The notes under the pieces were generated by a model that was given only the letters and a program-made list of their open reading frames with translations, made no database searches and was not told the DNA's origin. 55,303 nt of DNA from a virus, in UHGV virus genome UHGV-0114783; one strand, given 5' to 3'. Both the position numbers and the translations under genes were made by a program. Positions 16,317 through 16,886 of this stretch are shown here, one piece after another (positions within the stretch are counted from its first letter, which is position 1; each line of letters starts with the position of its first letter).

Positions 16317-16886
16317 ATGAATAATCTACCCGATGATTACTTTTTGGATGCGGACGACGAACTCGTTGCTTTTCTGGAGAAGCAGGGCGAGGATTGTATA
16401 CGCGAAATTCACCAGTCCAACGCACTAAACAAAGAAAATGGCCAGAAGTTATTGAGTATACTCATTGCTGGCGTGGGCTCGTCATTTTTGTTATTAACGC
16501 AACGTACAGGTTTTGATTACCTCACCGCTGGAATGTCTGTTTTTTTAGTCTACTGGGCAATGTGTGCGGCTTATCTTGTTCGCTGCGTCCTCGTTGTAAG
16601 GTCACGAGCTCTCGTGTCATCGACACCCTATGCGCTTTACCATGATGACTATAAAGGGTTTACTGAAGATGATTACACTGGTTTTGAGTCGAAAGGATTT
16701 TCAGGAAAGCGTTCAACATTGAACGTCTTGCGGCGCTACCGGCTTGCGGATTTAACCAGAATGGCTGAAATGAGTAAAAAAGAGAATGCCAGAATAGGCC
16801 GAGAACTAGAAAGGGTAAGGATCGCTACAATCCTCACCCCTGTTTGTGCACTTGTAATCTCAGTACTTACTTACCTTTTTTTCTGA
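16317..16886 (+). CDS. Membrane protein of unknown function (moron between Q and the lysis genes)
   Basis: 189-aa ORF with at least three hydrophobic segments. Confidence 0.55.
   Translation: MNNLPDDYFLDADDELVAFLEKQGEDCIREIHQSNALNKENGQKLLSILIAGVGSSFLLLTQRTGFDYLTAGMSVFLVYWAMCAAYLVRCVLVVRSRALVSSTPYALYHDDYKGFTEDDYTGFESKGFSGKRSTLNVLRRYRLADLTRMAEMSKKENARIGRELERVRIATILTPVCALVISVLTYLFF

Follow-up and report, generated by a model that had tools for sequence, protein, structure and literature searches.

A self-contained two-gene moron with a convergent micro-protein gene at the Q-lysis junction of an Escherichia coli lambdoid prophage

The HK97 gp15 moron, a terminator-flanked autonomous unit in a lambdoid late operon, encodes an inner-membrane protein of 62 amino acids (aa). 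The sieB gene of P22 and lambda encodes a prophage membrane protein of about 190 aa, which in early-region contexts is opposed to the neighbouring transcription (lambda record), and a small antagonist spares the phage itself, the P22 record describing esc as 'protection of P22 against SieB self-exclusion'. The sieB system also has an antisense RNA, sas. Morons in general are said to have been defined, by Juhala et al. in 2000, as autonomous cargo units in temperate phages. Here, we describe such a unit, consisting of two facing genes, in UHGV virus genome UHGV-0114783, whose whole stretch of 55,303 nucleotides (nt) was analysed and is called the window below. The window is a lambdoid prophage of Escherichia coli with integrase, RecE/RecT, S24 repressor, O/P replication genes, RusA, the antiterminator Q, lysis genes and terminase. 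The two genes are named A, which encodes a 189-aa membrane protein, and B, its minus-strand partner. Like gp15, A is an inner-membrane product of an insulated unit, and one A/B clade occupies the gp15 slot; gp15, however, is a single protein with no antisense partner and no sequence relation to A. The likeness to sieB and esc lies in the size and prophage origin of the membrane protein, in an orientation that also for A opposes the neighbouring transcription in early-region contexts, and in the possible presence of a small antagonist, whereas Esc is an in-frame internal product of sieB and not a separate convergent gene, and no homology was detected.

A similar arrangement has been shown experimentally in phi80, where an antisense, lysogen-expressed defence gene lies inside the Q-driven late operon and is damped by late transcription (PMC11364771). 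Compared by description, phi80 Tai/Ati and A/B are both two-gene morons of a Q-controlled late operon with one antisense and one sense gene (PMC11364771). In phi80, however, the antisense gene is that of Tai, a 26-kDa soluble protein which blocks tail assembly, whereas in A/B the antisense gene is tiny and the sense gene encodes the membrane protein. Convergent pairs of the toxin-antitoxin or excludon kind would likewise combine a partner that is small and labile with one that could do harm, and overlapping convergent transcription could make their expression mutually exclusive. Classical type II genes are nevertheless co-transcribed, and type I antitoxins are RNAs, while B is a conserved protein-coding gene. 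PycTM proteins are described as disrupting membrane integrity and killing the infected cell by abortive infection (PMC11224242). The PycTM model (PDLC02364 / PF18967) has 160 positions and the A family has 158-190 aa, and in both an N-terminal cytoplasmic helix runs into transmembrane helices. Unlike PycTM, no A that we examined is accompanied by a pyrimidine cyclase, the partner of A is a convergent micro-protein absent from Pycsar, and A/B is carried by phages and not by defence islands.

The open reading frame (ORF) of A is not a chance reading frame, because it is annotated in RefSeq (WP_029403922, hypothetical protein), matches phrog_11870 over its full length, and belongs to a family of near-constant length with invariant residues: the homologues form 115 clusters with 43-93% identity to the window protein, nearly all of 189 aa, in which 21 residues are invariant. 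A GAGG Shine-Dalgarno sequence lies 7 nt upstream of its start. A preliminary description of this DNA had reported a 189-aa protein with several hydrophobic segments, and the ORF agrees with it exactly, the segments being three in a Kyte-Doolittle scan (residues about 45-62, 69-95 and 169-189). Residues 1-44 are acidic, and the loop at 96-168 contains 15 lysine and arginine residues, so that, by the positive-inside rule, the N-terminus is predicted to be inside and the C-terminus outside, with both soluble parts (1-44 and 96-168) in the cytoplasm. In this predicted topology, only a six-residue loop and the C-terminal end are exposed to the periplasm. Strong conservation falls on the cytoplasmic parts, and both a signal peptide and a surface-exposed domain are absent according to the hydropathy analysis. 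The AlphaFold2 model (predicted local distance difference test score, pLDDT, 81) consists of helices 14-62, 68-92 and 134-188; the first and the last each extend into the membrane from a stalk in the cytoplasm, with 68-92 as the transmembrane helix in the middle. The family, which the preliminary description did not recognise, has no match to the protein itself in Pfam, NCBIfam or PADLOC, and phrog_11870 is annotated as 'unknown function'. Sequence-profile matches of A in the PDB (GpsB, E 0.034; ATP synthase subunit b) were judged to be due to chance. A literature search for the accessions or PHROG identifiers found no paper.

Gene B converges on A, and the last codons of the two genes overlap by 20 nt. 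It had been overlooked in the preliminary description, which proposed a single 189-aa moron gene; since the unit is a two-gene cassette, that reading was incomplete rather than wrong, and its view of the gene as cargo stands. The automatic ORF list begins B at the ATG at 17028 (53 aa), which is part of an ATGGAGA ribosome-binding site and is missing from other loci. The conserved start, matching RefSeq, is the ATG at 17016, which gives 49 aa and is preceded at 8 nt by a GGAG Shine-Dalgarno sequence. B stands beside A in all 88 loci with an intact A (eight from species-representative genomes and 80 from viral contigs, to which several annotated phages were added), with 3' overlaps of 20-35 nt. 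In three other loci, which are decaying copies, A is truncated or frameshifted. The median ratio of nonsynonymous to synonymous substitution rates (dN/dS) of B is 0.37 (638 pairs, overlap with A excluded), so that B is a protein under purifying selection and more than an antisense RNA.

A profile search with B found 52 homologue clusters, all from Enterobacterales and with lengths of 43-93 aa; for clusters P0256 and P0258, A adjoins B in all eight places shown. The consensus of B reads MS(E/Q)xNKP...KPQP...PKPxP...F(S/T)xxRxxVGDSA(D/E)..RKKxK. Across the family, B peptides have 28-64 aa and low complexity, and their sole family-wide feature is the proline-rich N-terminus. The family of B, phrog_14506, is also annotated as 'unknown function', and PADLOC v2.0.0 returned no family at E <= 1 for either A or B; Pfam and NCBIfam gave no match for B either. 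A tblastn search of B against phage records found nothing, probably due to low-complexity masking.

These properties of B bear on whether the roles could be reversed as in phi80 Tai/Ati, with B as the lysogen-expressed defence factor and A as the counter-measure that spares the prophage's own lytic growth. The geometry would fit the 'noncontiguous operon' of phi80, in which the defence gene is antisense, the counter-defence gene is sense, and Q lowers the antisense product (PMC11364771). However, B is a short peptide of low complexity with nothing but a proline-rich N-terminus in common across the family, A is far better conserved and effector-like, and the insulated promoter-like element of A would neutralise B already in the lysogen. 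We consider reversed roles highly improbable.

Megablast of 16100..17260 against phages and E. coli genomes gave matches at both ends only. HK225, mEp237 and many E. coli prophages share with the window about 150 nt behind Q and about 90 nt ahead of the holins. On the left, similarity to HK225, mEp237 and E. coli KL53 stops after ...GCGTTTCTGGAG, which sets the slot boundary at about 16262; on the right, the part shared with the same three genomes is the T-run and about 70 nt before the holin. Between these flanks, HK225 carries a 136-aa minus-strand gene and mEp237 a 213-aa gene. The slot of KL53 (L105:1640-1930, corresponding to window 16263..17128) holds about 270 bp without an annotated gene, which could be a remnant or a small RNA. 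The stem of the closing terminator differs with each cargo, and the T-run behind it is shared. The content of guanine and cytosine (G+C) falls to 0.43-0.47 in 16100..17150 from 0.50-0.59 in the genes on either side. The view of A as a moron at the Q-lysis junction, put forward in the preliminary description, is therefore supported for the A/B unit by shared flanks with differing cargo, a cassette-specific terminator stem and lower G+C. The genes that it had called an antiterminator and a first holin-like gene are Q and the first of two holin-family genes (PF03589; PF16931 and PF05449), and its terminator-like hairpin at 17108..17137 was recovered as the closing terminator (z = -3.0). We conclude that A/B is a self-contained, mobile two-gene moron, previously uncharacterised.

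The same description had taken the gene as cargo and not as a core lysis gene. Similarity to a holin, antiholin or other lysis family was sought in Pfam, PHROG and NCBIfam and was found for neither A nor B, whereas the neighbouring genes match strongly. A is also set apart from holins by the convergent gene B and the terminator; moreover, it co-occurs with at least five unrelated holin/endolysin types and is present in slots without any lysis role. The pair was also considered as a type II toxin-antitoxin operon, which was rejected: the genes converge with a 3' overlap, and neither A nor B matches a toxin-antitoxin family.

Regulatory elements were found on both sides of the pair (Table 1). 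The intrinsic terminator between Q and A, which was not noticed in the preliminary description, corresponds in place to a rho-independent terminator annotated in the HK225 record. It is the tR'-like stop of the short late-promoter transcript, and the cargo thus sits downstream of tR'; the late promoter itself presumably lies within the backbone block 3' of Q. In loci with 50-60% protein identity, the motif GACATTCAGGTAAAAT is the sole alignable non-coding block 5' of A. A TA(A/G)AAT hexamer is located 34-41 nt upstream of the A ATG in 30 of 52 distinct loci, and this motif or -10-like element always follows a terminator, the tail-operon clade included. Remote relatives have TATAAT- or TACAAT-like hexamers at the equivalent position, again after a terminator of their own. 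On the other strand, the core G(A/G)TAT..T..A of the conserved block 5' of B is present in 38 of the 52 distinct loci, and one possible reading of the block is an extended -10 element, TGATATCGT. A hairpin 5' of this block (window 17070..17100, minus strand) is degenerate in the window, and its stem shows compensatory changes among loci (CCAGA/TCTGG in L004, L005, L007 and L013 versus GCCGC/GCGGC in L006 and L008). The terminator scan found no minus-strand terminator within A, and the transcript of B may therefore run antisense through A. No Rfam family and no tRNA was found in 15900..17400.

The pair extends well beyond the window. A profile search of 1.8 billion representatives added 102 further distant relatives of A with 158-215 aa; 69 of them were aligned and all 69 match phrog_11870, while hhalign joined the window clade to the remote clade with a probability of 99.7% (E 6e-27). 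Among the 88 loci, A/B follows Q in 55, and these Q proteins belong to three unrelated families (PF03589 in 28, PF06530/DUF1133 in 25 and PF06323 in two). The lysis cassettes 3' of A/B in Enterobacterales are diverse. In one clade the cassette precedes the tape-measure gene, the place that the gp15 moron takes in HK97. In this tail-operon clade (L106:2385-2771, 3798-4361), A/B is flanked by a 128-aa lipoprotein and KilA-N protein cargo, and the cassette with its extra cargo lies between the tail chaperone genes and the tape-measure gene.

Remote A genes were found in other accessory settings: after gpD in a P2-like phage, beside an S24/CI repressor, with terminase genes on both sides in a Mu-like phage, in a recombination region where they run on the opposite strand, in an islet of a late region with SieB on one side and HicAB on the other, and on a Burkholderia megaplasmid next to a PAAR-Tae4 cluster. 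A B-like ORF also accompanies A relatives of 22-37% identity, including those of the P2-like, Mu-like, repressor-adjacent, recombination-region and Burkholderia megaplasmid loci. In nearly all remote loci a small hydrophilic ORF, usually proline-rich and starting with MS.., converges on the 3' end of A. The remote relative P0221 has no B-like ORF, and its contig ends 169 nt after A. The face-to-face design is conserved from the lambdoid, P2-like and Mu-like phages of Enterobacterales to the Burkholderia replicon.

The neighbours of remote A/B pairs include exclusion, toxin and toxin-antitoxin genes, namely SieB, HicAB, HicA, BrnTA and PAAR clusters. The islet-mates are SieB with HicAB in L117:2969-5452 and HicA in L120:1385-2169, and BrnT/BrnA lie nearby in L019:5543-6083. 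Two unrelated A/B modules, one on a P2-like metagenomic contig (L018:1932-3249) and one on the Burkholderia megaplasmid (L116:6656-8526), both converge on a PAAR-domain toxin cluster, and in L018 B is the last gene of the minus-strand operon of that cluster. In a Klebsiella prophage with the cassette (L112:140-433), a protein of the Acb2/Tad1-hairpin family, a family of anti-CBASS / anti-Thoeris sponges, is encoded just after the lysis genes.

In every late-operon context, A is co-oriented with late transcription and B is antisense, and a repressor gene lies upstream of B, in the same direction, in L018 and L019. Such orientations are relevant to a function in the lytic cycle, in which A would be made late by Q read-through and would aid or time lysis or protect the cell from further infection while it lyses, and B would serve in lysogeny as a safety lock on leaky A. 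The orientation of both genes in the Q-holin, tail-operon, gpD-adjacent and Mu-like late slots would suit this explanation, as would the co-direction of B with the repressor gene and the position of most copies immediately before lysis genes. Nevertheless, close phages with the same flanks are without A, A pairs with unrelated lysis cassettes and is also found far from lysis genes, and it matches no lysis family. In addition, the succession of a terminator and a -10-like element before A in every context is the design of a lysogen-expressed unit. A lytic-cycle function appears quite unlikely to us.

At a nucleotide identity of at least about 70%, the module was detected in 242 of 5,426 complete E. 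coli genomes (~4.5%, about 1 in 22) and in only two of 72,556 plasmids; at 99.8% identity or more, the locus of the window recurs in six complete E. coli genomes, and E. coli AR_0119 carries an identical copy. Genes carried at the Q-lysis junction are often of use to the host, for example stx in Stx phages. A/B might accordingly be host-fitness or addiction cargo unrelated to phage defence, either a factor for membrane stress or virulence or a toxin-antitoxin pair that only stabilises the prophage. The frequency of the module in E. coli and the toxin-antitoxin genes adjoining several relatives would be in keeping with such a role. However, the plasmid count indicates that the family is nearly confined to phage genomes, A has neither signal peptide nor surface-exposed domain, and the Pfam/NCBIfam scans gave no match for A to virulence families; we regard such a role of the module as very unlikely.

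The most informative remote similarity of A is to PycTM effectors. Five of the 69 aligned distant relatives match the PADLOC PycTM model PDLC02364 (best E 1.5e-8), one matches a second PycTM model, and two CBASS '2TM effector' models each match one member. In P0200, a phage A/B module with no cyclase nearby, residues 15-137 align with positions 7-116 of the 160 of PDLC02364 (E 5.5e-4), a match that spans more than the hydrophobic helices, and P0209 matches the same model with E 0.016. Pfam PF18967 (PycTM) matches one of the 69 relatives (E 0.016). The clade holding these members is the remote one that hhalign joins to that of the window. We take the matches as statistically meaningful, though indirect: they point to the A family as one of small immune effectors that disrupt membranes, or as similar to them. 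The sub-threshold Pfam matches among the 69 relatives (8xMP in six, best E 0.019; YLATT in three; PycTM in one) were judged to be membrane-protein noise, and a literature search for '8xMP' returned nothing relevant.

Known exclusion proteins were compared with A directly and rejected as homologues. The hhalign probability was 0.2% for lambda SieB and 0.3% for P22 SieB, and the SieB model PF14163, which matches lambda SieB, matches none of the A relatives tested. For P22 SieA, lambda RexB and HK97 gp15, the probabilities were 0.3%, 0.2% and 1.3%, respectively.

Another explanation is non-lethal superinfection exclusion at the inner membrane: A would block DNA entry like HK97 gp15 or P22 SieA, and B would only tune the level of A. 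The inner-membrane location of A and its origin in an insulated moron unit agree with this explanation, and so do the clade in the exact gp15 slot before the tape-measure gene and the relative adjoining SieB. On the other hand, almost nothing of A is predicted to reach the periplasm and its conserved parts are cytoplasmic, the absence of homology to gp15, SieA, SieB and RexB offers it no support, and the remote likeness to killing effectors (PycTM, CBASS 2TM) points elsewhere. We regard such exclusion as unlikely.

The reading that we tentatively prefer, while giving it somewhat less than an even chance, is that the lysogen expresses A/B as a toxin-antitoxin-like module for abortive infection or exclusion, with A as the membrane effector and B as its labile antagonist. 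We infer the exclusion or abortive-infection role, which the preliminary description had named among the possibilities, from the sequences, and the remote PycTM signal in distant members somewhat strengthens it. In this proposal, the lysogen would express A and B from two facing promoters, one for each gene. A would resemble PycTM as an effector which, once active, damages the cytoplasmic membrane, and B would be a short-lived cytoplasmic antagonist silencing A, via the protein and/or via convergent antisense transcription. A superinfecting phage that shuts host expression or otherwise removes B would release A, and the infected cell would then be arrested or killed, or the infection would be excluded at the membrane. 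While the prophage itself is in its lytic cycle, Q-modified polymerase would pass tR' and A and collide with the transcription of B; late in this cycle A would rise and B would fall, at a time when membrane damage no longer harms the phage.

Several observations weigh against this abortive-infection or exclusion proposal. The A protein of the window has no PADLOC match at E <= 1, which makes its PycTM link transitive through five of the 69 members. When 20 distant relatives were scanned singly, P0200 and P0209 alone matched, both more weakly than 1.5e-8, and the compositional bias of membrane proteins can inflate scores of the PycTM type. Fold searches with A returned generic long-helix bundles only. 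No cyclase gene was found in the window or in any related locus inspected, and A/B is for that reason not a Pycsar system. The sense orientation of A in late operons would make a phage-harming effector a liability unless it acts late or is triggered by foreign phages. Finally, a consensus sigma-70 scan of 15900..17400 returned no promoter, and it is for this reason that we only infer promoter roles for the motifs before A and B.

A broader form of the proposal is that A/B represents a new class of phage-borne abortive-infection module. In such a module a cyclase-less PycTM-like effector would be braked by a convergent, 3'-overlapping proline-rich micro-protein, and not by a second messenger, and the face-to-face genes might themselves form a switch responding to the state of transcription in the cell or prophage. 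We hold this broader form to be doubtful.

Table 1. Coordinates of the A/B cassette and its flanking features in the window.
Feature	Position	Strand	Basis
Gene A, inner-membrane protein, 189 aa, three predicted transmembrane helices	16317..16886	+	ORF list, ATG start; hydropathy; phrog_11870 E 6e-84
Gene B, 49 aa, rich in proline/lysine/glutamine, no hydrophobic segment, MSESNKPSGENKPQPAPQPKPAPQPAERNLRTGYTFVADSAENIRKKGK	16867..17016	-	phrog_14506 E 5e-26; RefSeq WP_162842358
Conserved motif GACATTCAGGTAAAAT, candidate cassette promoter	16272..16287	+	-10-like TAAAAT at 16282..16287, 35 nt before A start
Conserved block 5' of B, TTGATATCGTTAAATCGCCAAAAATAACCC, candidate promoter and 5' leader	17037..17066	-	Conserved where surrounding intergenic DNA is unalignable
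tR'-like intrinsic terminator 5' of A	stem 16209..16236 + T-run	+	Terminator scan; fold -19.1 kcal/mol, z = -3.25
Intrinsic terminator closing the cassette	17109..17138	+	Stem 17109..17128 + T-run, -17.5 kcal/mol
Backbone block 3' of Q; presumed late promoter region + tR'-like terminator	16145..16262	+	Near-identical in HK225, mEp237, KL53
Backbone block right of slot, before holins	17139..17207	+	Common to HK225, mEp237, KL53
Q antiterminator, backbone, left neighbour of A	15330..16112	+	PF03589 Antiterm E 3e-43; phrog_127 E 4e-103; RefSeq 'antitermination protein'
Two holin-family genes, backbone, right neighbours	17251..17905	+	PF16931 E 1e-34; PF05449 E 7e-20

The tandem holin genes to the right of the cassette are of different kinds, Phage_holin_8 (PF16931, 17251..17637, 128 aa) and Phage_holin_3_7 (PF05449, 17624..17905, 93 aa), with a 14-nt overlap. 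They are followed by a GH19 endolysin and a spanin pair, in which the outer-membrane spanin gene (18727..19071) overlaps the inner spanin gene (18516..18908) and extends beyond its end. A putative phage metallopeptidase (PF18894, 206 aa) is encoded at 19292..19912 between the lysis and terminase genes, a slot which is a frequent cargo site. In the left part of the window, a Rac-type recombination module (1952..6465, minus strand) consists of a RecE-like exonuclease VIII of 1129 aa with a PDDEXK C-terminus and the adjoining RecT.

Prophage morons contribute in a major way to bacterial immunity and are as yet poorly catalogued. The A/B cassette is common: about 1 in 22 complete E. coli genomes carry it, as do many other Enterobacterales, yet its annotation amounts to two hypothetical proteins. 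For annotation, it is a warning that the functional unit includes a 49-codon gene on the opposite strand, which a single-strand reading misses. Should A/B prove to serve in defence or exclusion, the immune repertoire of E. coli would gain a common system, and membrane effectors of the PycTM type would be shown to work without any nucleotide signal. The pair would also be a clear case of a protein antagonist whose gene lies antisense to that of its target.

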